The notes below the pieces were generated by a model. That model was not told the DNA's origin. It was given only the letters and a program-made list of their open reading frames with translations, and made no database searches. A DNA stretch of 64,000 bases from Eledone cirrhosa (lineage: Eukaryota): NCBI GenBank assembly GCA_964016885.1, contig OZ024758.1, positions 24,490,001 through 24,554,000 on the forward strand, read 5' to 3'. Positions 1,449-32,005 of this stretch are shown one piece after another; position 1 is the first letter of the stretch, and each line of letters opens with the position of its first letter. The position numbers and the translations under genes were made by a program.

Positions 1449-1688
1449 GTGCTAGTCCTGGAGATGTTATTTCTCTCAGAAATTACTTACATATACATTT
1501 ATATACATTCATATATATATATATGTATATACATATATATATATGTATATATATATAGAGGTTATATTTCATTTGTTGGGATTCAACAAGCTTAAACATT
1601 TTTATAACTGATATAAAGCACTCAACAAGTTAGTGGAGTAAATACACAATATATTAATAAATGGTAACTATATTTATAAAACCATATT

Positions 1689-1756
1689 TATTTTGTTATA
1701 TATATATTTCAAGGGCAACCAAGGCAAATTATGGTGCGCTTTCATCAGATAAAATA
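1689..1756 (-). ncRNA. Type I hammerhead ribozyme motif (family 1)
   Basis: Minus strand: tattttat CTGATGA aagcgcacc..ggttgccctt GAAA (ta)n TA acaaaata. Confidence 0.65.
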
Positions 1757-1893
1757 CAGATTTGTTTTATAAATAAATATTGACATACCCGGAAAAAAAG
1801 ACAACCTTAACGGTTGGAGTATCCAGGAAGCTCCAACCGTTAAGGTTGTCTTTTTTTCCGGGTATGTCAATATTTATTTATAAAACAAATCTG

Positions 1894-1959
1894 TATATTA
1901 TCTGATGAAAGCGCACCATAATTTGCCTTGGTTGCCCTTGAAATATATATAATAAAATA
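1894..1959 (+). ncRNA. Type I hammerhead ribozyme motif (family 1)
   Basis: tatattat CTGATGA [helix II aagcgcacc/ggttgccctt] GAAA tatata TA ataaaata. Confidence 0.7.
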
Positions 1960-1997
1960 AATATGGTTTTATAAATATAGTTTCCATTTATTAATAT

Positions 1998-2056
<59 letters not shown>

Positions 2057-2059
2057 CCA

Positions 2060-2625
2060 AAAGTTAAACAAGGTTCATTGATTAATCAATGAATATAGTT
2101 TTACAATAGATTAGAAGCACTCAATAGATAGGTTTTCAAAATATTAATAAATGTAGACATTCACTTAATCAAAATATATTTTATTATATATATTTCGGAG
2201 GTACTGAAAAAACAGCACAGTACCTCCGAAATATATATAATAAAATATATTTTGATTAAGTGAATCATCATTTCATCATCATCATTTCATTTTATGTCCG
2301 CTTTTTCCCTGCTTGCAAGGGTGGGCGGGAACTGATTCTGGCTTGATTTCTACAGCTGGATGCCCTTCCTAACATCAACCTCATTTACAGTGGGTGATTT
2401 TTTGCCATGGCACCTCCGCGACCACTTTGCAGTGGAATGATAGGGACCCCAGTCCCCATCAACTCATTTCTACAGCTGAGTAAACTGGAGCAATGTGAAA
2501 TAAAGTGTCTTGCTCAAGGAAACAACACATCACCCGGTCTGAGAATTGAACTCACAACCTTTCGATTGCAAGGCCAATGCTCTAACCACTAAGCCATGTG
2601 CGTCTACATTTATTAATATTTTGAA
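2060..2625. mobile_element. Inverted-pair element holding the hammerhead 3' half, interrupted by a SINE
   Basis: Palindrome centred near 2210 (cagtacctccGAAAtatataTAataaaata in both orientations). The right arm resumes at about 2602 after the SINE. Related to 29155-29365. Confidence 0.55.
2266..2601 (-). mobile_element. SINE-B copy
   Basis: Reverse complement of the 29443-29778 sequence. Confidence 0.88.
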
Positions 2626-2823
2626 TTAATATTAATATATATAAAAGGACGATTTGTTGTCTTCATTACGTTTGAGTAGTGACATGCGTTTTGCTATTGA
2701 TCAGCTCATGTTCGATCTGTATCGATCTAGCCTGACTCTGGAATTACAGTACTTGGACGTTACATTCCCTATATATATATATATATATATTTAAAAGAAT
2801 AGAGGTGTAACACACGAGTTATG

Positions 2824-3230
2824 ATATATTGGTAAACGGAAAAGAAAATGCTGACAAATTGTTCCCAGTGAAAAATAGTTTAATTAGGAATAAGTAAAAA
2901 TTAGTAATAGTATTGGTTAGTATTCAGTTTTGGTTTTAAGTTTTACCGGTTGCACATTTCTAATGCTTTTCAAAAATAATTTTGTGATAGAGGGCCCGTG
3001 ATGTTTGCTCTAATCCGATTAGAAATGTTTGCTCTAATCTGATTAGAGCAAACATCACGGGCGCTCTATCTCAAAATTATTTTTGAAAAGCATTAGAAAT
3101 GTGCAGCCGGTAAAACTTAAAACCAAAACTGAATACTCACCAATACTATTACTAATTTTTACTTATTCCTAATTAAACTATTTTTCACTGGGAACAATTT
3201 GTCGGCATTTTCTTTTCCGTTTACCAATAT
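2824..3230. repeat. About 400-bp palindrome between (TA)n tracts
   Basis: About 190-bp arms with few mismatches. The centre carries a duplicated atgtttgctctaatcYgattaga. Confidence 0.85.
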
Positions 3231-3782
3231 ATATATATATATATAGGGAATGTAACTCTATTGGTTTTTCACTGGATTTCACAAAATCTGTGGATAAAAT
3301 CTCTGTCTTGGTGTTGTTTTTTTTTTTTTTAATTGACTTTGAATTATTTTCCCATATCTTACGTTAATTATTTTCCATTTTGACGTTATAGTCACTTATA
3401 TATTATGAAATACTGTTGGCTTCTTGCTCACAATAATTTCTATATTTTCATTTATATATATATATAAGTATGTATGTATACGTACATACATATATGTATA
3501 CCGACGTACAGTAGTATGTATATATATATACACATGCACACATATATATATGCACATATCGGTTTACCAAACATTTATTATAATGCTCGGTTTGTTTGTT
3601 TGTAAACCGATACATACATATATATATGTGTGCATGTGTGTATATATATATATATATATATACATACTACTGTATGTCGGTATACATATATGTATGTACG
3701 TGTACATACATACATACTTGCATTTAAGTAAGTGCCGTACTAAGAGTGAGAAATGAAATTTCGTTTCATTCTATTCCATTTA

Positions 3783-3813
<31 letters not shown>

Positions 3814-3997
3814 GGAAATGGCTTCTACAGGACTAGAACTGTTTCAGTCGGGAGAAATCATCAGGGCTTCCTGATGATTTCTCCCGAATGAAACAGTTCT
3901 AGACCTGTAGAAGCCAATTCTATATAAATATTTATACTCTGCTATGTATTGAGTACCTTACTTACTGTGGTTACCCCCGATTGAACCTGGGATAACT
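3814..3997. mobile_element. Inverted-pair hammerhead element (family 3) in (TA)n
   Basis: Inverted arms 3820-3864 and 3870-3915. The tail gtattgagtac is shared with the element at 30501-30695. Confidence 0.6.
3865..3915 (+). ncRNA. Type I hammerhead ribozyme motif (family 3)
   Basis: Helix I ggcttc/gaagcc, core CTGATGA, short helix II ttc(tccc)gaa, GAAA, helix III cag(ttctagac)ctg. GUA cleavage triplet, predicted cut after 3909. Confidence 0.72.
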
Positions 3998-4041
<44 letters not shown>

Positions 4042-4172
4042 CATACATAAGCGTATTGCTCCAGTCATTTTTTGGGTTGCAGACGTTCAGAATTTTCTGA
4101 CAAAAATGACAAAATTTTCTGACAATTTTTTGGGAGGGGATGTGCAACTGCACTCCCAGCAATACGTCACAG

Positions 4173-4215
<43 letters not shown>

Positions 4216-5229
4216 CATCCTCATCATTATTATCACCGTTTAATGTCTATTTTCCATGCTTACATGGATTAAACAAGCTGTCATGTATGGTGACTAGACT
4301 GCATGCTTCATTTTTGGCTTCGTTTCTACAGGTGAATACCTTTCCTAATGTTAACCACTTTACACCATGTACTAGGAGCATTTTATCATGACTCCAGCAC
4401 TCCCACCTTATTGGATCCTTTTTTGTCATTAAACCAGTACAACCACCTTACAGGGTGGACTGGGTGCTTTCTGTTGTAGCACTAACATGACCACCTTATA
4501 GAGTGAATTGGGTGCTTTTTGTTGTGGCACTAACATGACCACCTTATAGAGTGAATTGGGTGCGTTTTGTTGTGGCACTAACATGACCACCTTATAGAGT
4601 GAATTGGGTGCTTTTTGTTGTGGCACCTTACATGGTGGACTGGATATAAAACTCTTATCTGGTTTGTGCTGGGTGCACATACCAAGAACTAATTAACTAA
4701 TAGGTAACTGCTTTGGAAGTCTGAAATCATCAAGAAGAATGACATGACAAACCCAACATATAAGACCTGATGAGGCAAACCATGGTATTCAAGCAACATG
4801 CCTTTTCCAATACTTACCATATTTACTTGAATATAAGCTGACCCACTATTTTATGTCTGAGAAATAGGCAAAAATCCAAACCCCATTTATAAGACAGGTA
4901 ATCAACATGTTTAGATGGTGTAATTTTGAAATTCTCTTCGGAGTAATCTCTCCCTTTGCTAATTACTGTATTTCCCGGCACCGAAGATGCTTCGTCCTCG
5001 AAGATGCACCCTAACTTTGACAACCAAAAATTTGAAAAAAAAGTAAACAACCTTCGGCCTCCATGACGCATGGTAGATTTTTTAGACTTATTTTAGGGAA
5101 AAAGTAGCGTCTTCGAAGTCAGGAAATATGTTAAGTCCTCTAAGTAACAGAAACTATCAACTACTTCTATGATACCTTCCTGGAACCAGAAAGGATTTCA
5201 GTGAGGTTTTTACTACCAACTACACCTGT

Positions 5230-5590
5230 GTATCTGCCAAATGTCTATCTTTTCCGTTAGCCTGCCTACAATCCGACAAGGCCTCATATACCCATACCCT
5301 ACACTAAGTATACTGTATAGAGTTCTGCCTACTCTTTCTACATATCAAGCATGGCAACTTCAGTGATGGTACAAGAGTTCTATCCTCTTTCCTACTTACT
5401 AAAACTTCGGTCTTTGCCTGGTTTACTTTCAACCCTTGTGATTCTAATTAGTTTCCACAACAGAAATTTCTTCTTAAATTCTTCCACAGACTCAACTAGA
5501 CAATAAGAACCATGTCATCAACAAACAAACGTTCCCATAGACAACCAATCTTAAACTCCTCTATTGTGGCATGGAACATAATAAATAGAT
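5230..5590 (-). mobile_element. Old RTE LINE fragment
   Basis: Minus-strand remnants GCLWERLFVDDM, GLKVNQAKTEVLVSRKE and PCLICRK, homologous to the 32-34 kb copy. Confidence 0.65.
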
Positions 5591-6050
5591 GAGGGCTGAG
5601 GGTTGAGCCTTGAAAAACTATAACAGGAGAGGGCTGAGGTATGAGCCTTGAAAAACTATAACAAACAGGAGAGGGCTAAGGGTTGAACCTTGAAAAACTA
5701 TAACAGGAGAGGGTTGAGAGTTGAGCCTTGAAAAACTATAACAGGAGAGGGTTGAGAGTTGAGCCTTGAAAAACTATAACAGGAGAGGGCTGAGAGTTAA
5801 GCCTTGAAAAACTATAAAAGGAGAGGGCTGAGAGTTAAGCCTTGAAAAACTATAATAAACAGGAGAGGGCTGAAGGTTGAGCCTTGAAAAACTATAATAA
5901 ACAGGAGAGGGCTAAGAGTTGAGCCTTGAAAAACTATAACAGGAGAGGGTTGAGAGTTGAGCCTTGAAAAACTATAATGGGAGAGGGCTGAGAGTTGAAC
6001 CTAGAAAAACTATAATAAACAGGAGAAGGCTGGGGGCTGAGCCATGAAAA
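5590..6050. repeat. 38-42-bp minisatellite derived from an RT motif
   Basis: Unit aggagagggctgagagttgagccttgaaaaactata(ataa)ac. The minus strand encodes QGSTLSPLLFIIV. Confidence 0.85.
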
Positions 6051-6156
6051 ACACTGACTTGCAGACTGAATACCTCATTAGACTCACTTTTACTGATAAC
6101 AACTATGCATATGATGACTTGCACTACTCTTATAAGCTACACATCTACAACACATA

Positions 6157-6208
<52 letters not shown>

Positions 6209-6610
6209 GCACACATATAAACACGTACACACGGAGGCGTGCGCGCTCGCGCACACATGTGTGGGCAGGTACACACATATATATATAAGCAGTATCAACA
6301 TAGTGTAGAATGTTTTTAATTGCTGCTATATTTTCAGTGCGTGGGTGAGAGTAGGTATAAATGATAGGATTAACAAGGAGCGTGTCGTCTCGTAACCAGT
6401 TCCCCCACCCCTTAAATAACTATCAGCGGTAGTTTTCAGTCAGACATAGACTTTTACAAGTAATTACATTTATTATTATAGTTTAGATTGTTTAATTAAT
6501 ATTCAACATAATCTCTCAATGTCATGGAAATCCTTTGACATTTTATGAAAATCGTTATCTTTTGTTCTGGCAGCGGTTCGTTTGTGCACCCTTTTCGCCT
6601 GCCTTTTGTT

Positions 6611-6770
6611 GTATGTGGTCCTAGATGTGAGTATGTGGTCCTAGATGTGAGCATGTGGTCCTAGATGTGTGCATGTGGTCCTAGATGTGTGTATGCGGTC
6701 CTAGATGTGTGTATGCGGTCCTAGATGTGTGTATGCGGTCCTAGATGTGTGTATGCGGTCCTAGATGTGT
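6611..6770. repeat. 20-bp minisatellite
   Basis: Eight copies of gtatgYggtcctagatgtgt. Confidence 0.95.
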
Positions 6771-6925
6771 CTATTATTTGCTGGGCTGTGTACTTTTTAG
6801 GTCTTTTGTCCGTTCCCTTTTCTTTTTTTCTCTTTTTATTTGCAATATTATGATGACGGTGATGTTGACAAAGTCTTAATAAAAATTTGAGCAGTGTCTA
6901 ATAAAAATAAAACACACTATTAAAG

Positions 6926-6971
<46 letters not shown>

Positions 6972-9126
6972 AAAAACAACGGGGAAATGAAAAGTAGAAA
7001 AGGAAAGAAGGAACAAGCAACAAAAAATAAGACAAAGGGGTTGGGACAGACACTACACCCTCTTTTCAACGGTAAAGTATGTGGTTATTTTAGTTGACAA
7101 CCCACCAGATTAGTTTTAATTTTCTACAATAAAATTTACACAACAAAAAACGACGGAGATTTTATGTGAATGTGATGTGACGGTTTGAGAAAGAATACAT
7201 AGTCTGTTAACTTTAACCCCTTTATTTACAGTACTTTTTCTTTCTTATATTTCACTCTTTTATTCCTCTCTTTTCTTTTTATAATGAAAGAGGAGAAATG
7301 GAAACCAGGTTGCAAAGTGTGTCAGTGACCTGGTTCCGACTGTCATTTGAAATCACAGCCACCGACACACCGCTAATGTCCTTGTCGGAAAACATAAATA
7401 TATATCGCAACTAATAATTTCCTACCTTTATATAAATGCCTAAGTTCTTTTAATATAACCACACAGTAATATAACGTTTTTTTTTTTGTTTTTTTTAAGG
7501 GAGTCTGGAGGTTTTCAACACTGCTGACCACATCTCTGTTTCATTTCTCAAGTGAAGCAAACTTTTGTTCAAATATATAAGATTAAATAGAAGTACATAG
7601 ATATAATCAGTTAATTATTGCTAGGAACCTTATAAATATAATACACAGTCAGTCTACCCTAACTTAAGATTCTCGTGTCTTAGGAAAATGCATGAACATC
7701 ACACCTTCCAATACACGCCCCCTCCGCAGCCATCCTGAAATGATACTAAATTAAGCATTTCTGAATTGGTGGGGAAGGAGCCAAATCTGATCAATTTAAT
7801 TGTAGTGATTAGTTTAGCTGTTATTATCAAATATCAACCAAGATATGAAAAAGAAAAAAAACTTTGATGTGCGATAAACATAACATGTATATATATATAT
7901 TGTAGCGTCTATACAAATGAATGTGTGTTTTGGTAGTTTGGTGCGAAAAAGATATAATTATTAGAGCGTGTGTGTGTCCCCTCCCCCTGTAATTACAGTT
8001 TAGTCACTAACAGATACCCGTCTACCCGTCTATGAAAAGTTAAGCAGCGACTTTATCCGCTTTATTGACATGAATAAGTTTAGCCAAGTTTACTCTATTT
8101 TATTTTATCATTCCGTCACGCTAGTACAAGCAGAAATAAAATATACAACTTAATTAGCTCAACTAGATTATGTACTGTTGTTCGTTTATTAAAATACCAT
8201 TAGCAATACTTAGTGTTTTAATGTAAAAAAACGCAAGTGTCTTTTGTGGTTATGAAAACGGAAAAGGAAGGAAAAGGCAAGGGCTCTATGGTCACAGAAG
8301 AATGGGCGAGGGTGTGGCAAGGTATGGACTCTAGGCCGAGGGTACGGGTGGTAATGGAGCTGCGCTCCGCGGACAAGACCGCAAAAGTATTCAATAGTCA
8401 ATTATATTTATTATGTGTTTATATATATATATACACATATATATATTCATTCTGAAAAAAATTCTAAGAAATTTGTAATGTTATTTATGTATATTATATT
8501 TAAAATCAAAATAACGCATTCTTTACACAAAGACATCGGAATGTAGAGAGGAGAAGTGGAATTAAACATGGTATGGCATTTCTTTCAGATTCCAACAAAA
8601 TAATGGAAAGAATTCAAAAGATGTGACGATGTATGTGTTTGTTTGTGTTGGTTGATTTGTTCTCGGAAGAATTAGTTACGTAACTTCTATGAAATGGCAG
8701 CAACTAGTTATAGAAACTGGATCGCAAAGTCGGTTTACCGAATATAATGTAACATTGTGAAATATCTTTATATTTTTTTTAAAAAAAGTAATTTTTCTGA
8801 GACTGTAAAGAAGATGTAGACGAAATTATTTATTTAATATAATTTTCGTGCATTTTTCAAATTTAACATAATTTGAATGAAGTGGCTACAGCCGGGAATT
8901 GAAACCGGCTCGCTGTTATATATATATATATATATATAATTGTTTCTACTTTTATACTTTTAGCACAAGGCTAGCATTACTCAGTACATTACTGGTACTT
9001 TATTTTATGGACCCCGTAATAATAAACATTATATATATAGATAGATATAATGTTTATTATTCATTTTTTAGTGTTGTTGATGTTGTTATTATTTTCTCAC
9101 AATAACATAAACATTCCTAGCATTAC

Positions 9127-9175
<49 letters not shown>

Positions 9176-9331
9176 TTCAATTATTATTACTCGGTAGAGG
9201 GTCGGACGCCAAGCATAGAGTTACGGCCCTTGCCATTCTGAGTTCAAATCCCGCCGAGGTTAACTTTGCCTTTCATCCTTACGGGGTCGATAAAATAAAG
9301 TACCAGTAATACACTGGATTATAGAAACAAT

Positions 9332-9366
<35 letters not shown>

Positions 9367-9462
9367 TGTGAAAACGGTAAAATTCTAGTCATGACACAAA
9401 GAGTGAGAGAAAAAAAAATTTTTTTTTTTTTTTTTTCGTTAATTTCAAAGGTGACACTGAAA

Positions 9463-9495
<33 letters not shown>

Positions 9496-9509
9496 AATCT
9501 ATAACTTAC

Positions 9510-9554
9510 GTCCAAGAATATAGCCATTCCCTTTTCCATGTTATGATCCGCCAT
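9510..9554 (-). CDS. First coding exon of an unidentified divergent gene (MADHNMEKGMAIFLD)
   Basis: Minus strand reads gcaggagATGGCG (good start context), 15 codons, then a perfect |gtaagt donor, in a CpG-rich region next to the MORN1 start. An upstream in-frame ATG at 9686 is possible. No second exon was found in 1-9500. Confidence 0.55.
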
Positions 9555-9782
9555 CTCCTGCTTTGCGGTTCGATGTTGGTTGAAAGGGATGTAACGAGAA
9601 CTGGGTGGAGTTACACGAGAACTTGCTGCTAGTTCGGTTGCCGTTGACAACCGATTCGACAACAGAACTTCTCTGTTAGCTGCCATCGCATGGAGTTTTA
9701 GTAGACGACAGAGAGACGACGGCGGCTGTGATAGTTTTTAGAGTCGAGTCGTGTTACACTGAGAGTATAGATATTGTCGGCG
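9555..9782. promoter_or_regulatory. Putative bidirectional promoter/5'UTR region
   Basis: 228 bp between two divergent ATGs, CpG-enriched relative to its flanks and free of repeats. Confidence 0.6.
9637..9651. promoter_or_regulatory. RFX X-box-like palindrome
   Basis: GTTGCC-GTT-GACAAC inside tcggttg...caaccga fits the RFX two-half-site pattern. It lies about 130 bp upstream of the MORN1 ATG. Confidence 0.55.
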
Positions 9783-9918
9783 ATGGATGTTGATGCGGAA
9801 TCCTCCAAGTACATAGAAACTACTTGTGTTTCTCTGACAACAATACATTTGTCGGACATCGAAAGTGCTAGTAATATAGAGAAATATGTAGGAGAACAAG
9901 AGCAAGCATTAAGAAACG
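9783..9918 (+). CDS. MORN1: MORN repeat-containing protein 1, coding exon 1
   Basis: ATG at 9783 (gcgATGG). Encodes MDVDAESS...EKYVGEQEQALRN-G and ends at a G|gtaaga donor (phase 1). YVGE...RNG is a MORN-like start and joins exon 2 in frame. Confidence 0.8.
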
Positions 9919-10224
9919 GTAAGATCACACTCACTGACATTGGCCAAGCAATCTTTATTATAGGATTTCGTCCAAAGATAAAGACTAAGGAGTTAGTTAA
10001 GAGCAGATTTTAACTGCTATATCATCAGATCGAAATAACGAATTAAATGTTTTACATTTCAGTAAGTTTTTTTTTAGAGAACTGAAAAGCTCTGGCAGGG
10101 TGAAAGCCAGGGTATTCTGAGGTAAAAACCATCCAAGTTTCCTGATATCGTTAGAGCCAATATAGGACCACTACCATAACTGTATTTGTTGCTTATTAAT
10201 TTTGACGTCTGAGAGTGTTTATCG

Positions 10225-10345
10225 GGTGTGCAATACTACCACCCTCAACGCATGCCACAAGCCTCGCGAACTGAAATGGCTCTCCCAGCGCGTCACCCTC
10301 ACCATCCTCCGCGGAAACGCCTTCTCTATACTGTCCGCCGGGGTA
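10225..10345 (+). mobile_element. CRE-like (RLE endonuclease) non-LTR C-terminal remnant
   Basis: KPRELKWLSQRVTLTILRGNAFSIL resembles the QRxSxAxQRGNAxSIL C-terminus of CRE-type elements. Confidence 0.55.
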
Positions 10346-11212
10346 GCGAGGTGGCCAGTGCGTGGGACTCCGAGGTGGCCAGCGCGGGGTGGCCAGCATG
10401 TGGGCCCCCAATTGCTCATAATTGTGAGAGATGGGGAGAGACGAGGATAGACTGTCTATGAAGGAGTGATGAAATCTTGCTTGCATTAATTTCAACTCTT
10501 CTTATCGCTATACAAGGCTACGCTGAAAAGTTCATAGACTGATGATGAAGGAGTGACTCTAGGGCTGTGAAATCTTGCATGTATTAATTACAACTCTTCT
10601 TATCGCTATACGTGCGAACTCTGAAAAATTCATAGACTGACTATGAAGGAGTGATGCTGGAGCTGTGAAATCTTGCATGTATTAATTTCAACTCTCCTAC
10701 ATTGTTTCTTTTAAAGTTTCCAATTTAAATTAAATTCTACCGACATAATTTTATATAAGAACCTTACATTAAGTTACTATTTTAGTAATGAAATAATCAA
10801 TAATTTTAGTAAAACCCTCAAAATTCTTCATTATTTAATTGAAATAGAGTGTATTTCATCAAAAATACGGCCATGAAAGGGTCAATCAACAGAATATTTC
10901 TACTGCATGAAGCAAACAATATGAGTAATGTATAGTCTACATTTGATAACTTATGCTATAAGTAACTGTAGTAAATCTAGTACACTTAGTATTTTGGATG
11001 TGTAGTGATGTCACCATTTAAGTAGTCAAAAAAAAAAAAATCTAGTCTGCCTTAACCCTTTAGCATTTACATTATTCTATGACTTTGCCTTTCATCCTTA
11101 CGGGGTAGATAAAATAAAGTACCAGTAATGCACTGGGTAATTGCTGGCCTTGTGCCTAAAGTAGAAACAATTATTCTATATTTACTATTGTATTTTCACA
11201 GTAAAGGCTTTA

Positions 11213-13058: not shown

Positions 13059-14667
13059 CTGTTAATTTGCTCAAAATTCTTAGAGTAGGACAACTCTAAC
13101 ATCCCAAGGTACTTAATTAAGACTAAATCAACTGTCATTTAAAGTTAGCTGTCTTGATTAATGAAAGCAGTGCCAATGGTGTGATACAAACAGTTAGCCT
13201 TTTAACCCTTTAGCATTTATGTTACTCTATATTTACTATTATATTTTCACGGTAAAGTCTTTACCTCACATAATTATCTCACATGATATCGAATCTTTTG
13301 ATATTATTTATTTTGAGAACAATACCTTAGCATCAGTATGAGCAGCCAGTTACAGTCGGTTTGAATAGAAAGAGGTGAGAGAATTCTGGCCGGATATGGC
13401 CAGTTTAAATGTTAAAGGGTTAAACTTATAGTCCAACTTTCTTTTCACATAGCAAACTGTGGTTCTCAATTACAAATTTTGATTAAATTCTATTTCTCTC
13501 TCACACATTTCTTCTGCAATCTCAGTCCTTTTACTCTCTGTATCTCAAGAGCAGATGGACTCTGACCGAAGCCATACATTTATTGCTGGATAGATAGTTC
13601 AGAAAGATGACACCTTTCATTTACAGTGATGCCTTAATATCCAAGAAGCAGCGGGAGAGGTGACACCTTTCATTTACAGTGATTCCTTAATATCTAAGAA
13701 GCAGGGGGAGAGGTGAGGGTGTTGGTGGGGTCTGCTTTCATCCTACATTTGCTAACTGCCATCGTAACATAACTCCAAAGGTTTACCAGCAATATAGTGT
13801 AAATTCTCTAGTTGTTTTCTGAAGCTCTATCACATGCAAATAAATGCAAATATCAAATTTCTAACAATGTGTCAGTGATGATAAAAAGAATTTTAAGTTT
13901 TGTGTGTGTGTGTGTGTGTATGTGTAGGTGATTGTCTGTTTGTGTTTGTTTAGGTATATTTATATGTGTGATGGCTTGTGGCTTAACCCTTTCTAATGAA
14001 AGACACAGCTAATGATTTTCAGGTAGTTGTGAAAATAATCAAGAATTTAGAGGGGTTTAGTAACAGAATTAACTTTCTCATTATTTATCTGGTCTTTGGA
14101 ACATAACTTAACAAAGGTTCTTATAAAATTATGATGGAAGATGTTTAGATAAATATAAACACTTTAAAATAAAGTTTTGTATTGTAAAATCAGTGGCAGT
14201 TCCAAGCAGTTTGATAATGAAAGGGGTTAATGATTAAGGTATTTGCTCGTGATGGTTAAGAAAATGAGTTAAATTTGAAGGGTTTCAAGGGTGTGTTTGA
14301 ATTTACTTTATGGCTAATGCAGTGTGGTTTGGAGGAGGGGTAGGGTTTATTGTAGGTGCCACGATAAAAAGCACCCAGTCCTCACTACGAATGTGGTTGA
14401 CATTAGGAAGGGCATCTAGCCATAAAAACCAAGCCAAAAGCAGTTCTGTATGAGCAAGTCATAGTCATCTGATCTGACTTGTCTCACAACGGGACAACTC
14501 TCGTCTAACCCATGCTAGCATGGAAAACTGGAGATTATACGGTGATGATGACAATGATGATGATATAAATATATACACACGCACAAACCCATACACACAT
14601 ACACACACACAAACCTATACATCTATATCTTGTGTCAATGATCAATCTGTGTTCCGTCTAATATATA

Positions 14668-15148
14668 ATTGTTTCTACTTTTGGCACAAGGCCGGCAATT
14701 ATCCCAGTGCATTACTGGTACTTTATTTTATCGATCTTGTAAGGATGAAAGGCAAAGTTAACCTCGGCGGGATTTGAACTCAGAATGGCAAGGGCCGTAA
14801 CAAGCCATCACACATATAAATATACCTAAACAAACACAAACAGACAATCACCCACACATACACACACACACACAAAACTATCATAGTGATGATATAAGAA
14901 GCAATTAAATCATTAATTAATTGATAAATAGAACATTTATGATCATTAGTAAATTTCAACACCGGTAGATTATTTGGACTTAAAATTCTTTTTATCATCA
15001 CTGACACGTTGTTAGAAATTTGATATTTGCATTTATTTGCATGTGATAGAGCTTCAGAAAACAACTAGAGAATTTACACTATATTGCTGGTAAACCTTTG
15101 TGTCAAAGCATGGCGTCCGACCCTCTACCGATACTGCCAATCCACCGC
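14668..15148 (-). mobile_element. SINE-A with a 300-bp foreign insert and 16-bp TSD
   Basis: TSD ccgtctaatatataat at 14654-14669 and 15149-15164. The SINE body is split at 14800-15100. Confidence 0.85.
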
Positions 15149-17358: not shown

Positions 17359-18030
17359 CAAAACAACCAGACACAGCACAGTCTACATAGAGTGTATAGA
17401 GTGTGTTTGACTTCCACTACACAACAACAATAGTACCAGGCACAGCACAGACTCTGTAGAGTGTGTTTGGCTTCCACTACAAAACAACAATAGTACCAGA
17501 CACAACACAGACTCTATAGTGAGTGTTTGACTTCCACTACAAAACAACAATAGTACCAGACACAACACAGACTCTATAGTGAGTGTTTGACTTCCACTAC
17601 AAAACAACAATAGTACCAGACACAACACAGACTCTATAGTGAGTGTTTGACTTCCACTACAAAACAACAATAGTACCAGACACAGCACAGACTCTATAGT
17701 GAGTGTTTGACTTCCACTACACAACAACAATAGTACCAGACACAACACAGACTCTATAGTGAGTGTTAGACTTCCACTACAAAACAACAATAGTACCAGA
17801 CACAACACAGACTCTATAGAGTGTGTTTGACTTCCACTACAAAACAACAATAGTACCAGGCACAGCACAGACTCTATAGAGTGTGTTTGGCTTCCACTAC
17901 AAAACAACAATAGTACCAGGCACAGCACAGACTCTATAGAGTGTGTTTGGCTTCCACTACAAAACAACAATAGTACCAGACACAACACAGACTCTATATA
18001 GAGTGTGTTGGACTTCCATTACAAAACAAT
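17359..18030. repeat. 60-bp minisatellite
   Basis: About 11 copies of gtgtttgacttccactacaaaacaacaatagtaccagacacaacacagactctatagWgW. Confidence 0.95.
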
Positions 18031-19948: not shown

Positions 19949-19983
<35 letters not shown>

Positions 19984-21792: not shown

Positions 21793-22016
21793 AGTCATTC
21801 TCTTCTTTCAATTCCTTTTAGTACCTTAACCCTTTAGCATTTAAACTGGCCATATCTGGCTAGAATTCTCTCACCTTTTTCTGTTCAAATCAGCTGCTCA
21901 TACTGATGTTAAGGTATTGTTCTCAAAATAAATAATATCAAAATCTCATAGATTCAATATTATGTGAGATAATTAGGTGAGGATGAAGAAAAGCTGTGCC
22001 ATCAGAGACTGGGGAC

Positions 22017-23509: not shown

Positions 23510-23524
23510 CTGGGGACATGACAC

Positions 23525-26500
23525 CACAGACTGGGGAGTTGTTTGGTGTAGTTAGATGAGGAAAAGTAGTACCCTCACAGACTGTGGGGGGGGGGTAGTT
23601 AGATGAGGAAAAGTAGTACCCTCACAGACTGTGGGGGGGGGGTAGTTAGATGAGGAAAAGTAGTACCCTCACAGACTGGGGGGGGGGTAGTTAGATGAAG
23701 GAAAGTAGTACCCTCACAGACTGGGGAGATTGGTGTAGTTAGATGAGGAAAAGTAGTACCCTCACAGACTGGGGGGTTTGGTGTAGTTAGATGAAGGAAA
23801 GTAGTACCCTCACAGACTGGGGGAGGAGGGGGGTGTAGTTAGATGAAGGAAAGTAGTACCCTCACAGACTGGAGAGTTTGATGTAGTTAGATGAGGAAAA
23901 GTAGTACCCTCACAGACTGGGGAGATTGGTGTAGTTAGATGAGGGAAAGTAGTACCCTCACAGACTGGGGGGCGGTGTAGTTAGATGAGGGAAAGTAGTA
24001 CCCTCACAGACTGGGGAGATTGATGTAGTTAGATGAGGAAAAGTAGTACCCTCACAGACTGGGGAGATTGATGTAGTTAGATGAGGAAAAGTAGTACCCT
24101 CACAGACTGGGGAGATTGATGTAGTTAGATGAGGAAAAGTAGTACCCTCACAGACTGGGGAGATTGATGTAGTTAGATGAGGAAAAGTAGTACCCTCACA
24201 GACTGGGGAGATTGATGTAGTTAGATGAGGAAAAGTAGTACCCTCACAGACTGGGGAGATTGATGTAGTTAGATGAGGAAAAGTAGTACCCTCACAGACT
24301 GGGGGGTTTGATGTAGTTAGATGAAGGAAAGTAGTACCCTCACAGACTGGGGAGATTGGTGTAGTTAGATGAGGAAAAGTAGTACCCTCACAGACTGGGG
24401 AGATTGGTGTAGTTAGATGAGGAAAAGTAGTACCCTCACAGACTGGGGAGATTGGTGTAGTTAGATGGGGAAAAGTAGTACCCTCACAGACTGGGGAGAT
24501 TGGTGTAGTTAGATGAGGAAAAGTAGTACCCTCACAGACTGGGGGGTTTGATGTAGTTAGATGAAGGAAAGTAGTACCCTCACAGACTGGGGAGTTTGGT
24601 GTAGTTAGATGAGGGAAAGTAGTACCCTCACAGACTGGGGAGATTGGTGTAGTTAGATGAGGAAAAGTAGTACCCTCACAGACTGGGGGGTTGTGATGTA
24701 GTTAGATGAAGGAAAGTAGTACCCTCACAGACTGGGGAGTTTGGTGTAGTTAGATGAGGGAAAGTAGTACCCTCACAGACTGGGGGGGGGGGTAGTTAGA
24801 TGAGGGAAAGTAGTACCCTCACAGACTGGGGAGATTGATGTAGTTAGATGAGGAAAAGTAGTACCCTCACAGACTGGGGGGTTTGGTGTAGTTAGATGAG
24901 GAAAAGTAGTACCCTCACAGACTGGGGAGTTTGGTGTAGTTAGATGAGGAAAAGTAGTACCCTCACAGACTGGGGAGTTTGATGTAGTTAGATGAAGGAA
25001 AGTAGTACCCTCACAGACTGGGGGGTTTGATGTAGTTAGATGAAGGAAAGTAGTACCCTCACAGACTGGGGGGTTTGGTGTAGTTAGATGAGGAAAAGTA
25101 GTACCCTCACAGACTGGGGGGGGGTAGTTAGATGAGGGAAAGTAGTACCCTCACAGACTGGGGGGTTTGATGTAGTTAGATGAAGGAAAGTAGTACCCTC
25201 ACAGACTGGGGAGATTGGTGTAGTTAGATGAAGGAAAGTAGTACCCTCACAGACTGGGGGGTTTGATGTAGTTAGATGAGGGAAAGTAGTACCCTCACAG
25301 ACTGGGGGGTTTGGTGTAGTTAGATGAGGGAAAGTAGTACCCTCACAGACTGGGGGGTTTGATGTAGTTAGATGAAGGAAAGTAGTACCCTCACAGACTG
25401 GGGGGTTTGGTGTAGTTAGATGAGGGAAAGTAGTACCCTCACAGACTGGGGGGTTTGGTGTAGTTAGATGAAGGAAAGTAGTACCCTCACAGACTGGGGG
25501 GTTTGATGTAGTTAGATGAGGGAAAGTAGTACCCTCACAGACTGGGGGGTTTGGTGTAGTTAGATGAAGGAAAGTAGTACCCTCACAGACTGGGGAGTTT
25601 GGTGTAGTTAGATGAAGGAAAGTAGTACCCTCACAGACTGGGGGGTTTGATGTAGTTAGATGAAGGAAAGTAGTACCCTCACAGACTGGGGGGTTTGATG
25701 TAGTTAGATGAAGGAAAGTAGTACCCTCACAGACTGGGGAGTTTGGTGTAGTTAGATGAGGGAAAGTAGTACCCTCACAGACTGGGGGGTTTGATGTAGT
25801 TAGATGAAGGAAAGTAGTACCCTCACAGACTGGGGGGTTTGATGTAGTTAGATGAAGGAAAGTAGTACCCTCACAGACTGGGGGGTTTGATGTAGTTAGA
25901 TGAAGGAAAGTAGTACCCTCACAGACTGGGGAGTTTGGTGTAGTTAGATGAGGGAAAGTAGTACCCTCACAGACTGGGAGGTTTGGTGTAGTTAGATGAA
26001 GGAAAGTAGTACCCTCACAGACTGGGGGGTTTGATGTAGTTAGATGAAGGAAAGTAGTACCCTCACAGACTGGGGAGTTTGGTGTAGTTAGATGAGGGAA
26101 AGTAGTACCCTCACAGACTGGGAGGTTTGGTGTAGTTAGATGAAGGAAAGTAGTACCCTCACAGACTGGGGGGTTTGATGTAGTTAGATGAAGGAAAGTA
26201 GTACCCTCACAGACTGGGGGGTTTGGTGTAGTTAGATGAAGGAAAGTAGTACCCTCACAGACTGGGGGGTTTGATGTAGTTAGATGAAGGAAAGTAGTAC
26301 CCTCACAGACTGGGGGGTTTGATGTAGTTAGATGAAGGAAAGTAGTACCCTCACAGACTGGGGAGTTTGGTGTAGTTAGATGAAGGAAAGTAGTACCCTC
26401 ACAGACTGGGGAGATTGATGTAGTTAGATGAGGGAAAGTAGTACCCTCACAGACTGGGGGGTTTGGTGTAGTTAGATGAGGGAAAGTAGTACCCTCACAG

Positions 26501-27990
26501 ACTGGGGAGATTGATGTAGTTAGATGAGGAAAAGTAGTACCCTCACAGACTGGGGAGTTTGGTGTAGTTAGATGAAGGAAAGTAGTACCCTCACAGACTG
26601 GGGAGATTGATGTAGTTAGATGAGGGAAAGTAGTACCCTCACAGACTGGGGGGTTTGGTGTAGTTAGATGAGGGAAAGTAGTACCCTCACAGACTGGGGG
26701 GTTTGGTGTAGTTAGATGAGGAAAAGTAGTACCCTCACAGACTGGGGGGTTTGGTGTAGTTAGATGAGGGAAAGTAGTACCCTCACAGACTGGGGGGTTT
26801 GGTGTAGTTAGATGAAGGAAAGTAGTACCCTCACAGACTGGGGAGATTGATGTAGTTAGATGAGGGAAAGTAGTACCCTCACAGACTGGGGGGTTTGGTG
26901 TAGTTAGATGAGGGAAAGTAGTACCCTCACAGACTGGGGAGATTGATGTAGTTAGATGAGGAAAAGTAGTACCCTCACAGACTGGGGGGTTTGGTGTAGT
27001 TAGATGAGGGAAAGTAGTACCCTCACAGACTGGGGGGTTTGGTGTAGTTAGATGAGGAAAAGTAGTACCCTCACAGACTGGGGGGTTTGGTGTAGTTAGA
27101 TGAGGGAAAGTAGTACCCTCACAGACTAGGGAGATTGATGTAGTTAGATGAGGGAAAGTAGTACCCTCACAGACTGGGGAGATTGGTGTAGTTAGATGAG
27201 GAAAAGTAGTACCCTCACAGACTGGGGGGGGGGGGGGTAGTTAGATGAGGAAAAGTAGTACCCTCACAGACTGGGAGGTTTGGTGTAGTCAGTCTAGAGA
27301 AACTGTGCCCTCACAGACTGGGGAGATTGGTGTAGTTAGATGAGGAAAAGTAGTACCCTCACAGACTGGGGAGTTTGGTGTAGTTAGATGAAGGAAAGTA
27401 GTACCCTCACAGACTGGGGAGTTTGGTGTAGTTAGATGAGGAAAAGTAGTACCCTCACAGACTGGGGAGATTGGTGTAGTTAGATGAGGAAAAGTAGTAC
27501 CCTCACAGACTGGGGAGATTGGTGTAGTTAGATGAGGAAAAGTAGTACCCTCACAGACTGGGGAGATTGGTGTAGTTAGATGAGGAAAAGTAGTACCCTC
27601 ACAGACTGGGGAGATTGGTGTAGTTAGATGAGGAAAAGTAGTACCCTCACAGACTGGGGAGATTGGTGTAGTTAGATGAGGAAAAGTAGTACCCTCACAG
27701 ACTGGGGAGATTGGTGTAGTTAGATGAGGAAAAGTAGTACCCTCACAGACTGGGGGGTTTGGTGTAGTTAGATGAGGGACAGTAGTACTCTCACAGACTG
27801 GGGAGATTGGTGTAGTTAGATGAGGAAAAGTAGTACCCTCACAGACTGGGGAGATTGGTGTAGTTAGATGGGGAAAAGTAGTACCCTCACAGACTGGGGA
27901 GTTTGGTGTAGTTAGATAGGGAAAAGTAGTACCCTCACAGACTGGGAGGTTTGGTGTAGTCAGTCTAGAGAAACTGTGCCCTCACAGACT
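23525..27990. repeat. 48-bp minisatellite, about 93 copies
   Basis: Unit cacagactgggg(a/g)g(a/t)ttg(g/a)tgtagttagatga(g/a)g(a/g)aaagtagtaccct. Confidence 0.97.
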
Positions 27991-29252
27991 ATGTATTCAG
28001 AGTATAGACCACCAACACTAGAGAAGTTGTCATTCCTTTCACACAACTAAAAAGTCCTTTTGACCCTTTATTGACACAGTTTCTACAGCTGGATGTCCTT
28101 CCTATCACCAACCACTTTACAGAGTGTACTTGGTACATGTTTTCATGAAACCAACACTAGAGGAATTATCAGATCGTAAAAAGTTCATTGATTTTGTCAC
28201 CAGCAAGGAATAGAAGAAGATAGATAGTAAAAGATGACATCAAAGTACACTGTATCAATAATATCGATATTAACATATCCTCAGAAGACTCATTGGAATG
28301 GAAAGCAACAGGTAAAAGAACAGCACAAGTAATAAAATCATGACACTGCCATAAACTCTGACAGTATGAGAGGTGGCTGAAAAGTTCATAGGCTGATTAT
28401 GAATGAAGGAGTGATGCTAGGGTTGTGAAATCTTGCATGCATTGTTTCTTTCCAGGAACTTGCATACAAGTTTTGGCGAAAAGTTCATAGGCTGACTATG
28501 AAGTAGTGATGTTAGAGCTGTGAAATCTTGCATGCATTAATTTCAACTCTTTCTGTAATAACTGCATTGTTTCTTTCCAGGAACTTGCATACAAGTTTCG
28601 GCGAAAAGTTCATAGGCTGACTTTGAAGTAGTGATGCTAGAGCTGTGAAATCTTGCATGCATTAATTTCAACTCTTTCTGTAATAGCTGCATTGTATTCT
28701 TTCCAGGAACTTGCATACAAGGGTCGGCGAAAAGTTCATAGGGTGACTATGAAGGAGTGATGCTAGAGCTGTGAAATCTTGCATGCATTAATTTCAACTC
28801 TTCTTATTAATAACTGCATAGAGTTGAGAGTAACCTATAGTCTTTACAAGGACATGAGAACCTCTCTATTACTTGTACCATGATAAAATGCACCCAGTAC
28901 TCTCTGTAAAGAGGTTGGTGTTAGGATGGTCATCAACACATAGAAACGATCCCCAAATTGAAATGTATGACCACTAAGTGATGTTGTGTGTTCTTTTCTT
29001 GTCTCTCTCTCTATCTATCTATCTATCTATCTCTCTCTCTCTCTCATCAACCTTTCTCTGACTCACATATCTACAACTGATTTTAATAAATGATAAATGG
29101 ATATATATATATATATATATGGATATATATATATATATATATGGATATATATACCCAAAGATTAATCAACGGATACAATTTTACAATAGATTAGAAGCCA
29201 ATACTGGAATTGAATAATCAAAACCGCAGCGGTATGTCACATATCAAATCTT

Positions 29253-29317
29253 ATATTTCATCTGATAAAAACGTACTTAAACACCATTTTACCTTTGAAA
29301 TATGTATAATAAAATAT
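29253..29317 (+). ncRNA. Degenerate hammerhead motif
   Basis: atatttcat CTGATAA ... GAAA tatgta TA ataaaatat. The core has a G>A change and helix II is weak, so it is probably inactive. Confidence 0.45.
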
Positions 29318-29442
29318 ATGTTTTGATTATGAGAATATTTTGTATTTATTAACATTTTGAATCATATATGGATATATATATATATATATATATATCCATA
29401 TATGATTAGTGGTTAGAGCATATATATATATATATCCATATA

Positions 29443-29778
29443 TGGCTTAGTGGTTAGAGCATTGGCCTTGCAATCAAAAGGTTGTGAGTTCAATTCTCAG
29501 ACCGGGTGATGTGTTGTTTCCTTGAGCAAGACACTTTATTTCACATTGCTCCAGTTTACTCAGCTGTAGAAATGAGATGATAGGGACAGGGGTCCATATC
29601 ATTCCACTGCAAAGTGGTCGTGGAGGTGCCATGGCAAAAAAGCATCCAGCACTCACTGTAAATGAGGTTGGTGTTAGGAAGGGCATCCAGCTGTAGAAAT
29701 CAAGCCAGAATCAGTTCCCGTCCCACCCTTGCAAGCAGGGAAAAAGCGGACGTGAAATGAAATGATGATGAATGATGA
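29443..29778 (+). mobile_element. SINE-B copy
   Basis: Full-length, with A/B boxes and a (GAT)n tail. Confidence 0.88.
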
Positions 29779-30037
29779 TCATATACACATACATCTACCC
29801 GTCTATGGCTAATACCATGATCAATCAACTTTCTGAAATGATCGTAAAACAATGAACAGATTTATCACTAACCTTTGTCTTTTGCATTTATTATTCAACA
29901 CACACACACACACATACTCACACACATACACACACATATAATAATACAAGGACCATTTGTTATGCCTTCATTACGTTCACCTTGGTAAACCTACAGTAAC
30001 TTCATGTTACTCTCCCTATATATATATATATATATAT

Positions 30038-30423
30038 ATCCAGGAAGCTCCAACCGTTAAGGTTGTCTTTTTTCCGGGTATGTCAATATTTAGTTATAAA
30101 ACAAATCTGTATTTTATCTGATGAAAGCGCACCGTAATTTGTCTTGGTTGCCCTTGAAATATATATAATAAAATAAATATGGTTTTATAAATATAGTTTC
30201 CATTTATTAATATATTATGTATGCCGAGGTTAACTTTGCCTGTCATCCTTACGGGGTCGATAAAATAAAGTACCAGTAATGTACTGAGTAATTGCTGGCC
30301 TTGTGCCTAACGTAGAAACAATTAATATATTATGTATTTACTCCACTAACCTGTTGAGTGCTTTATATCAGTTATAAAAATGTTTAAGCTTGTTGAATCC
30401 CAACAAATTAAATATAACCTCTG

Positions 30424-30424
<1 letters not shown>
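30038..30424 (+). mobile_element. Family 1 hammerhead element with a SINE inserted
   Basis: Near-identical to 1557-2001. The SINE fragment at 30223-30320 is flanked by a 17-bp TSD, attaatatattatgtat. Confidence 0.7.
30110..30175 (+). ncRNA. Type I hammerhead ribozyme motif (family 1)
   Basis: Perfect 8-bp helix I tattttat/ataaaata, CTGATGA, helix II, GAAA, palindromic tatata, AUA site. Predicted cut after 30167. Confidence 0.75.
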
Positions 30425-30500
<76 letters not shown>

Positions 30501-30505
<5 letters not shown>

Positions 30506-30693
30506 AACCAGTAAGACCCCGACAGCTGAGCTCAAGCCGTTTCGACGGCTAATTCTAGTCCAGAATTATCCGTCGAAACGGCTTGAGCTCAGCTGTCGGG
30601 GTCTTACTGGTTCCTATTATCCACTCTACTACCTCAAGTATTGAGTACTTTGGTGCGTTATGGTCCACCTGGTTCCTTACCACATTTCCTTCG

Positions 30694-30695
<2 letters not shown>
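30501..30695. mobile_element. Inverted-pair element with hammerhead 3' half (family 4)
   Basis: Palindrome 30501-30617. cGAAA cggcttgagctcagctg TC ggggtc gives helix III with a palindromic tgagctca and a GUC site. The CTGATGA half is missing at the inversion point. Confidence 0.55.
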
Positions 30696-30744
<49 letters not shown>

Positions 30745-30772
30745 ATCAAAAGATGGTTAAATGAGTTCCATG

Positions 30773-30843
30773 TATTTTATTATCCGCATTTCAAAAACAA
30801 ATATCATCATGCAATAACATTTGTGTTTTCATCAGATAAAATA
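30773..30843 (-). ncRNA. Type I hammerhead ribozyme motif (family 2)
   Basis: Inverted copy of 30932-31002 with one helix III mismatch (tgcgga). Confidence 0.7.
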
Positions 30844-30931
30844 GGAGGACATGATATGAAGGTTAAAAACACTTGTGGATAGTGCAGTTTTAAATCAACA
30901 TAGTGTTTTTAGCCTTCATATCATGTCCTCC

Positions 30932-31002
30932 TATTTTATCTGATGAAAACACAAATGTTATTGCATGATGATATTTGTTTTTGAAATGCGCATAATAAAA
31001 TA
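30932..31002 (+). ncRNA. Type I hammerhead ribozyme motif (family 2)
   Basis: tattttat CTGATGA [aaacacaaatgtta..tgatatttgttttt] GAAA tgcgca TA ataaaata. All three helices pair. Predicted cut after 30994. Confidence 0.8.
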
Positions 31003-31147
31003 CATGGAACTCATTTAACCATCTTTTGATCTTATATATTATGTATACTCCAGTCCTACAAACTGTAGAGTGCTTCTTATCCGATATCTGCATTGCTTTA
31101 TTGTACTACAATAAAACTCACCTCCTACATATATATATATATATATA

Positions 31148-31560
31148 GGCAGACCTAGAAAAACCTGGGACGAGCTGATAAACTCCGACCTCACACACTT
31201 ACACCTCTCCAAGACAATGTCACTGGACCGAGACCTTTGGCGGTACTCAGTAATAGAGAAGACCCGCCTTACCTAAATACATAGTAAAACCTACTACAGT
31301 CAGTAGGCATCTCTAACAAAATACACCCCCGCCAGACAGTCCACGCTGTAATGTGGCCGTGTAGGCAACACGGTAAAAACCTCCCAGACCCACACTGTAA
31401 ACGTGGTTGGTGTTAGGAAGGGCATCCAACTGTAGAAAACCCGCCAGACAGTCCTATGCGAGCAAGACAATCACTCTTGCCTCAAGTGGGAAAACCCCCG
31501 TCCAAACCCATGCAAGCGTGGAACACGGACGTTAAACGTTGATGATGATGATGATGATGA
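31148..31560 (+). mobile_element. 5'-truncated RTE LINE 3' end
   Basis: GRPRKTWDELINSDLTHLHLSKTMSLDRDLWR, then 3'UTR and (GAT)n. Same family as 47162-50060. Confidence 0.85.
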
Positions 31561-31968
31561 TATACATATACATATTCATAGAGTAATTGGAAGAACTCAG
31601 CATGAGCCAAAACACTTCTTTTTAAGTAATATTTTACCCAACCTGCCATTGACGGCATTTTGCTGTTTTAACAGCTTCCTTATGCTGAGTTCCTCCAATT
31701 AATCTATGAATTCTAATACATTTGTGTTTCAAACTCGATATTCAAGATACATTTGTTTATATATATATATATAAATATTATATGTATACCCTTGCAAGCA
31801 GGGAAGAGCAGACGTAAAATGATGATGATGATGATGATGATGATATATCAATGATATTAATAAATGGAAACTATATTTATAAAACCACATTTATTTTATT
31901 ATATATATATATATATATAATAAAATAAATATGGTTTTAGAAATATAGTTTCCATTTATTAATATCAT

Positions 31969-32005
<37 letters not shown>

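Follow-up and report, generated by a model that had tools for sequence, protein, structure and literature searches.

Hammerhead-bearing inverted repeats of Eledone cirrhosa are ends of Hydra-clade Penelope-like retrotransposons and may record how these elements integrate

A stretch of 64,000 nucleotides from Eledone cirrhosa (contig OZ024758.1, positions 24,490,001 to 24,554,000; hereafter the window) contains several families of short repeats, here called A to E, that carry a hammerhead ribozyme motif or part of one, lie in (TA)n tracts and mostly form inverted pairs. A reading of the sequence alone had taken them for a possibly uncatalogued population of ribozyme-bearing mini-elements. Its segments, cores and stems were all located as claimed when the window was re-read, but the notion of mini-elements in their own right was not supported: the repeats are 5'-truncated ends of Hydra-clade Penelope-like elements (PLEs) that inserted into (TA)n. 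Families A, B and D form the ends of autonomous members of this clade, whose traits are described in PMC8557442. The kind of element is known in all general respects: hammerheads, (TA)n targets, inverted 5' copies and tails have been published for the Hydra clade. What is added here is the scale, counts of the pairing of long with short copies, a fixed 5' point away from the ribozyme cut and, in family D, a position of this point within hammerhead loop II together with U3-A8 and C3·A8 cores.

Results and discussion

Identity of the elements

Longer genomic copies connected the repeats with coding sequence. Upstream of family A we found frames of reverse transcriptase (RT) and C-terminal nuclease type, and an open reading frame (ORF) restarted past the A tail. 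Frames of 479-575 aa were enclosed by family B pairs, and an intact ORF of 716 aa was flanked by family D pseudo-long terminal repeats (pLTRs) at two loci (L141 and L142), with another intact D-flanked ORF at L355. Five family D copies stand head to tail at G000:C1:91473243-91487436 with a period of 3,542-3,543 bp; the unit examined (L355) holds an open frame of 786 codons, and the tandem is a candidate source locus. The A, B and D proteins were 32-42% identical between families. We regard it as close to certain that families A, B and D are the ends (pLTR plus tail) of autonomous Hydra-clade PLEs.

The clade assignment rests on published diagnostic motifs, and those of the A, B and D ORFs match the ones in PMC8557442. 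The signature set of these ORFs includes YRDD. RLRWR, with R replacing the K of RWK, and DKT were seen in D and A, and the B fragments examined end short of this region. The CxCx5C linker, CxH and a single Cys between GIY- and YIG-like motifs were present in all three families, CxxC was matched in D and B and not in the A copy examined, and a VIY..YIG-type motif stood at the C-terminus of all three proteins. The predicted structure of the family D protein (pLDDT 93.5) had telomerase RT (TERT) as its best structural match (E 1.8e-8); according to this model D encodes a single ORF with a telomerase-like RT, and homologous ORFs occur in A and B. The PLE traits (pLTRs, partial tandems, an inverted 5' copy and a tail) were present, as were the Hydra traits, namely insertion preference for (TA)n and a hammerhead near the 3' end. 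A search for homologues gave at least 2,234 proteins at E<=1e-10 among 8,000 candidates scored.

Some observations weigh against the assignment. Pfam gave no match for the D protein and a sub-threshold GIY-YIG match in one of three homologues. No linked ORF was found for family C in 60 C loci, where the two matches consisted of a 90%-identical piece of D and one weak match, and none is linked to family E, which was not searched. A PDB sequence search with the D protein returned nothing significant. Families C and E may belong to the Hydra clade, as their architecture and partial homology suggest: C shares its tail and upstream motifs with D, as well as a U·U closing of helix II, and E shares its 3' flank with A.

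Two other clades were ruled out. Neptune needs a CX2-5CxxC linker and a CCHH finger, whereas the present proteins have CxCx5C and one Cys between the motifs GIY and YIG. Naiad, considered because of a DKA-like motif in one decayed copy, has an N-terminal endonuclease (EN), DKA and no canonical hammerhead, in contrast to the C-terminal EN-type motif, DKT and hammerheads found here.

Other coding sequences came to light as well. The random sample held a near full-length Hydra-type ORF of another family (L167:7392-9560; 41% identity to D over 729 aa), and an unrelated non-LTR RT frame of 1,029 aa lies at L152:6205-9291. Asn/Ser/Thr-rich low-complexity inserts between RT thumb and linker, at L144:3262-4986 and L023:255-1556 (family B and another family), recall the N-rich inserts of rotifer Penelope.

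Abundance in the genome

The genome was sampled as 119 evenly spaced 10-kb stretches (1.19 Mb) and searched with a strict type I hammerhead descriptor that demands the core, at least five pairs in helix I, at least three in helix II, and a paired or palindromic helix III. There were 62 matches, 19 of them within one tandem array, spread over 33 stretches and falling into 16 clusters at 80% identity. Dinucleotide shuffles gave 0-1 match each (n=5), reversed sequence gave 0, and the decoy cores G3-C8, A3-U8, C3-A8 and U3-G8 gave 0, 0, 1 and 1 in the same stretches, so that the motifs are not due to chance. ORF pieces were present in 29 of the 119 stretches. Exact matches across the whole genome, which count arms and not insertions, numbered 80,633 when the pattern was a degenerate core that takes in families A, B and E with their relatives (control pattern 3), and 53,959 for the 3' half of family D (control pattern 0). 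The large population suspected by the sequence-only reading is borne out, and it is very large. Tail-only genome searches for D and B returned zero although copies exist, and are therefore uninformative. Described from 27 listed families, yet a major repeat of this genome and with at least 2,234 homologous proteins, the Hydra clade is under-annotated.

Anatomy of an insertion

The segments of the window are as follows. An arm is one copy of an element end; long arms carry the tail and short arms lack it.

1557..1828, minus strand: family A long arm, made up of the pLTR and a tail of about 85-90 nt; CTGATGA core at 1748; one change in the helix I 3' strand
1820..2001, plus strand: family A short arm without tail; core 1902-1908; start adjoining the family's fixed 5' point
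2055..2206, minus strand: family E long arm; hammerhead 3' half only
2201..2625, plus strand: family E short arm, interrupted by a SINE-like (short interspersed element-like) repeat at about 2266-2601
3815..3865, minus strand: family C short arm; starts at the core, without the helix I 5' strand
3865..3997, plus strand: family C long arm with a complete hammerhead motif at 3865-3915 (core 3871-3877) and U·U at the helix II base; cut predicted from the motif after 3909
29155..29196, minus strand: family E long arm, tail only (compared with 2055-2130)
29197..29365, plus strand: family E short arm; core decayed to CTGATAA
30038..30424, plus strand: single family A long arm with a complete motif at 30110-30175 (core 30118-30124, TATATA as helix III, cut predicted after 30167), interrupted by a SINE-like insertion around 30223-30320
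30501..30556, minus strand: family D short arm
30556..30695, plus strand: family D long arm, starting at the family's fixed 5' point (A at 30557) within loop II; hammerhead 3' half only; GAAA 30575-30578; predicted cut after 30597
30740..30902, minus strand: family B short arm with its core at 30835 and a damaged helix III (TGCGGA)
30894..31128, plus strand: family B long arm with a complete motif at 30932-31002 (core 30940-30946, TGCGCA as helix III, cut predicted after 30994)
31849..31970, unstranded: A-like short-plus-short inverted pair around a central (TA)n, with only the part downstream of the predicted cut

By inspection, seven of the eight segments named earlier are head-to-head pairs, in line with the claim that most are inverted 5' to 5'; the arm at 30038-30424 is single and broken by another repeat. 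Three window copies (3871, 30118 and 30940) passed the descriptor and satisfied the complete type I core (C3UGAN G8 A9 / GAAA / UH, three helices). The remaining cores (1748 and 30835 and 3864 on the minus strand, 1902 on the plus strand) each have one helix damaged or missing. An Rfam scan of the window gave no hammerhead match at E<=1, only sub-threshold, hairpin-driven matches of microRNA type, and single-strand folding z-scores were unremarkable in seven of eight segments. Folded as monomers, the C and D motifs alone took the hammerhead shape, A and B did not, and the predicted dimers were not decisive. Tandem copies, for which the sequence-only reading had suggested a search, occur in other families, at L198 and L276; the A-E elements of the window formed no head-to-tail hammerhead array.

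Two fixed 3' ends, separated by about 65-90 nt, are present in every family. A (TA)n tract followed 79 of 91 of these ends (41/44 long, 38/47 short), compared with 9.5% of random positions, which upholds the (TA)n target proposed from the sequence. In the unselected sample plus the window, 31 of 34 adjacent head-to-head pairs united a long with a short arm (p 8e-7 vs 50%); the other three comprised two short-short pairs and one of a short with another arm. The window pair 31849..31970 is an exception to this rule. Search-selected loci, a set biased toward holding a long arm, gave 120 long-plus-short pairs out of 127. For these counts 28 duplicate loci were removed, arms below 28-30 nt or 82% identity were ignored, and pairs with arm starts at least 80 nt apart were excluded. 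That the tail is restricted to one end was already noted in PMC8557442 and PMC3846280; the counts are new.

A family-specific 5' stop

At the other end the arms stop at a point that is characteristic of each family: in D it falls within loop II, and in the others it lies above the core, by about 5-10 nt in C, 68 nt in B and 82 nt in A. This point, which we call the cliff, behaved as a sharp boundary. Stops there accounted for 50/66 (D), 58/64 (C), 26/46 (A) and 15/26 (B) of the arms that reach the interval around the base taken as +1, and for arms passing +1 the next equal interval held 4/16, 2/6, 3/20 and 3/11 stops, respectively. The genome-wide step in family D was 21-fold, from 53,959 matches just downstream of the cliff to 2,548 at 64 nt upstream. 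The predicted hammerhead cut coincided with the end of only 4 of 321 arms, and production of the 5' ends by ribozyme cleavage was ruled out on this count. The pair at 31849-31970 is the one suggestive case of an end at the cut; it is ambiguous because helix III is itself TA-rich.

An initiator, a TATA box at fixed spacing and an extra G as trace of the cap are expected at a capped transcription start. The base at the cliff was an A after a pyrimidine in families A, B, D and G. In family G, examined afterwards, seven of nine arms stopped within 5 nt of the A in CAGTT, about 33 nt below TATATAA, and a TATA-like box lay about 28-33 nt upstream of the cliff in young D, C and G. A non-templated G preceded +1 in 16 of 35 arms, against 15 of 100 arms truncated further down (p 7e-4). 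Judged from these sequence features, the cliff is likely to be the capped transcription start of a pLTR promoter. For Drosophila Penelope, an internal promoter in the pLTR has been documented (PMC2377424), and TATA/Inr-like motifs have been noted in rotifer pLTRs. If the cliff is a transcription start, an ordinary mRNA would give only a copy of 60-280 nt, and full-length copies would need read-through RNA from tandem elements. Summed contig depth on the full D element (two runs, one study) was far higher downstream of the cliff (X1: 1.74 million vs 61,000); this is not copy number, may reflect the source sample and was not counted as evidence.

Several points tell against a transcription start. 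No TATA-like box precedes the cliff in A, B and H, and the box was degraded in 13 of 13 older-type D copies that nevertheless share the cliff. Five of the 16 arms with an extra G represent one recurring junction at which the G possibly came from the other arm; without them the count is 11/30 (p 0.017), and the excess lies mostly in family D (A 3/12, B 4/12). Moreover, +1 was picked from the same arms that were later counted, and family C arms mostly begin 4-13 nt below the A taken as +1. The cliff might instead reflect stalling of the RT at an RNA structure, a splice acceptor or a ribozyme cut, which we consider rather unlikely. Such origins would suit family D, where the cliff follows a pyrimidine run ending in AG inside a hairpin, and the intron of D. 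virilis Penelope that ends at its hammerhead (PMC4209133). However, the copies retain the AG and show no constant upstream exon, the position of the cliff relative to the hammerhead differs by family (82 nt above the core in A, 68 in B and some 10 in C, in loop II in D), and the scarcity of arms ending at the cut speaks against cleavage.

Proposed integration by twin priming and its alternatives

We propose that the element's endonuclease would cut both strands of the (TA)n target and that each cut end would start reverse transcription from one of two internal sites, both close to the front of a probably single capped RNA. The chances seem about even that copying begins at the proximal site and runs up to the cap, and that the distal site is then copied by strand displacement, so that two overlapping arms end up joined 5' to 5'. 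Priming at an internal site close to the front of the mRNA would produce a short copy ending at the cap, which would explain both the cliff and the excess of element tips. The hammerhead would probably cut multimeric read-through RNA, acting as a dimer wherever helix III is no more than a palindrome, and would be dispensable for each insertion. The whole reading, PLE ends placed by twin priming at two internal sites of one capped RNA after a cut in both (TA)n strands, is the one that we hold to be probable. The Poseidon protein has been reported to act comparably in vitro: both strands were cut and extended, two internal start sites on the RNA defined the tail, and ribozyme activity was not needed (PMC11167929).

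An alternative is self-priming, in which one strand of the same elements folds back at its end and copies itself into the inverted arm. Such priming on an antisense template was proposed for Penelope from palindromes at inverted junctions (PMC3846280), and it would fit our observation that arms are closer within than between pairs (A 2.4 vs 5.5%, D 1.6 vs 7.4%), that 32 of 65 pairs, chosen without regard to their 5' ends, have arm starts within 8 nt of each other and that 24 of 65 junctions overlap. Yet in 27 of the 65 pairs the short arm extends further 5' and holds sequence missing from the long arm (the reverse was seen in 6/65), so that the short arm is usually not a copy of the long one. 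Kilobases of ORF on the short arm (L144, L156 and L159), with the tail on the long arm only, imply that neither arm is a simple copy of the other, and self-priming is further contradicted by two cross-family junctions: an A tail head-to-head with a C short arm (L170:7462-7595) and a D-type long arm joined to an A body (L026:625-790). We consider it unlikely. The same junctions require two RNAs at these loci, and one might suppose that two separate RNAs held by a protein dimer are primed, with the long-short pairing arising from asymmetry of the dimer or of the cut. In favour of this, both arms usually span the same stretch in full, which one RNA permits only with strand displacement, and the 161 pairs counted include one cross-family pair (L170), with L026 in addition. 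On the other hand, subfamily variants were strongly concordant within pairs (in family D, 230 of 242 site comparisons vs 123 expected), and the more frequent 5' reach of the short arm (27 vs 6 of 65 pairs) likewise favours one RNA. The long arm also often ended near the short start site (L310, L275, L263 and L297), as a collision on one template predicts; we give two RNAs slightly less credit still than self-priming.

Far less probable is the idea that the short pairs are non-autonomous mini-elements, like miniature inverted-repeat transposable elements or retrozyme monomers, that move as a fixed unit. In its favour, the pairs come in stereotyped sizes, many copies share one and the same family C junction, the genome holds hammerhead arrays with tandem units of 430-468 bp elsewhere (L198, L276), and no ORF is linked to C or E. 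Against this, junctions differ among copies in A, B and D, arms run continuously into the ORF in longer copies, and most D copies lack half of the ribozyme, which makes self-processing as circles impossible. Twin priming on one RNA has its own difficulties. No strand difference in start-site use was seen in vitro (PMC11167929); the cross-family junctions need two RNAs; the near-symmetric pairs (32/65), several of which start at a common point away from +1, fit a fold-back or later loss of a hairpin tip; and variants shared within pairs can also reflect gene conversion or a single source active at a time.

The ribozyme core and the variant of family D

The helices vary between families, with TATATA, TGCGCA, CAG..CTG or CGGC..GCTG in helix III and TATTTTAT/ATAAAATA or GGCTTC/GAAGCC in helix I. 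Nine A/B/E-type representatives showed changes on both sides in 7 of 18 stem pairs (0/500 shuffles) and had 99.4% of cells paired, a result that is partly circular because most alignment rows were descriptor matches. Within this limit, the claim of several distinct families with one hammerhead architecture and compensatory stems stands. Counting gaps, and among copies that are not independent, core positions carried fewer mismatches than other positions in A (27/1596 vs 491/11276, p 4e-8), B (3/744 vs 108/5580, p 9e-4) and C (4/444 vs 122/2695, p 7e-5); in D the difference was not significant (1/312 vs 44/2899, p 0.12). The absence of excess core conservation, named beforehand as a ground for rejection, was therefore not what we observed in A, B and C.

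The CTGATGA core, or its 3' half, is kept in most segments as stated, but the family of 30501-30695 lacks the 5' half only in its short copies: 24 of 26 long family D copies read TTGAGAA, a U3-A8 variant of the core. Among the first 100 family D matches listed, 87 were young with U3-A8, 11 had C3 with A8, 2 had U3-A8 on an older background and none had G8. The 3-8 pair was broken (C3·A8 mismatch) in 11 of 13 copies of older D subfamilies, and C3·A8 copies fell in the more diverged subfamilies (4.2 and 2.9% vs 2.1%; 21, 11 and 7 short segments). We infer from these sequences that C3·A8 preceded U3-A8, and in that order family D would have spread with an impaired core. Most family D copies hold only half a ribozyme. 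The selected ribozyme function argued for from covariation is accordingly plausible for the source elements, and weaker than first stated. A search for CUGANGA alone would miss family D.

With its start in loop II, an mRNA that family D transcribes from its own promoter would include only half a ribozyme and so would not be cleaved. This leads to a more far-reaching joint reading, which we put forward tentatively. The genome would be an in vivo record of Penelope-type integration, in which twin priming by a protein dimer would use two fixed internal sites of one capped RNA; the hammerhead-bearing arms would be well over 100,000 miniature copies whose 5' ends map the family promoters; and the core promoter of family D, nested in loop II, would be a built-in switch by which read-through RNA alone forms the ribozyme, its core having first been broken, as C3·A8, and later mended by a compensatory change to U3-A8 in the youngest subfamily, which is intact. 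A promoter in the ribozyme loop, if true, would explain how a self-cleaving motif can be kept at the front of the element's own mRNA. Sharp predictions follow from a young family whose ORFs are intact and whose stereotyped insertions number in the tens of thousands: one long and one short arm, the short one made first, and a stop at the cap.

Comparison with known systems

The Hydra clade listing in PMC8557442 holds 27 families, nearly all in (TA)n and with hammerheads; an inverted 5' copy is given for one family, and one comes from Octopus bimaculoides. The present elements agree with this clade (Hydra-1_Obim of O. bimaculoides, Penelope-13_HM) in a putative C-terminal GIY-YIG-type EN, RW(K/R), DKT, the CxCx5C linker, CxxC, CxH and the lack of CCHH, as well as in (TA)n targets, a type I hammerhead near the 3' end and an inverted 5'-truncated copy; a U·U at the helix II base occurs in many families of its File S2. 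They differ in number, as 1.19 Mb yielded at least 16 clusters of hammerheads and 29/119 stretches held ORF pieces, compared with few families in PMC8557442, and in size, family D being about 3.5 kb long where the clade is generally below 3 kb. Tails are about 65-90 nt here and 30-40 in PLEs in general (PMC8557442). Two short motifs of the Hydra-1_Obim hammerhead were not found among the loci compared.

Minimal hammerheads of metazoan PLEs (PMC4209133) resemble ours in the type I motif within pLTRs, in a helix III whose palindrome implies dimers, in the presence of many families per genome and in pairs on opposite strands at a distance of 100-700 bp; Schistosoma Cercyon also has the U3-A8 variant of the core. 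In contrast, A and B close helix II with A-U instead of G-C, and D has a loop II of about 36 nt with a cliff in copy number and an older C3·A8 state; the counts also exceed the 2,000-9,000 per genome given there, though with different descriptors. Poseidon of Anolis, PAc (PMC11167929), likewise uses two internal RT start sites downstream of the hammerhead that set the tail, an AT-rich target and both strands. It belongs to another clade, whereas here the two sites are paired in vivo, one long and one short per insertion, and the family D ORF starts about 90 nt past the tail and not within the hammerhead. Non-LTR retrozymes (PMC7229834; bioRxiv 10.64898/2026.07.22.740005) share the type I hammerhead, high copy number and a relation to PLE pLTRs; unlike them, the window elements are inverted or single, not tandem, and in longer copies contiguous with autonomous ORFs. 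PMC8557442 and PMC11167929 name the origin of inverted copies and tails of PLEs as an open question. In the accessible part of the open literature, outside subscription journals, Repbase and Dfam, nothing was found on these families, on a start site in a hammerhead loop or on PLE twin priming.

Neighbouring repeats

Further repeats of the window resemble the insertions described above. At 2790-3232 lies a long-plus-short inverted pair in (TA)n of another family, F, with 15 arms among the loci; no hammerhead was seen in 430 nt upstream of its other copies, and its sequence suggests that it is possibly a hammerhead-less PLE such as Naiad. Positions 3256-3459 are the tail of another hammerhead-bearing family, with a full motif at L263 near 7640. 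The end pieces at 3469-3783 belong to a family that is also found as inverted pairs and forms tandem arrays elsewhere, with units of 468 bp (19 hammerheads) at L276:300-9500 and of about 430 bp at L198:6700-8400, which match the description of non-LTR retrozymes.

SINE-like repeats are abundant at the AT-rich short end of PLE arms (window 30223-30320 and 2266-2601; L336, L264). The insertion at 30223/30320 is flanked by an apparent 16-bp duplication, and one of these repeats has a tRNA-like part just under the Rfam threshold. Large minisatellites occupy 42249-44936, 39073-40946, 23525-27990 and 17395-18029, with units of 69, 86, 48 and 60 bp, respectively; the 69-bp unit is derived from a SINE-like repeat. 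Finally, inverted arms of about 200 bp at 13776-15100, 99% complementary, about 800-1,080 bp apart and without a hammerhead core, are possibly a DNA-transposon derivative.

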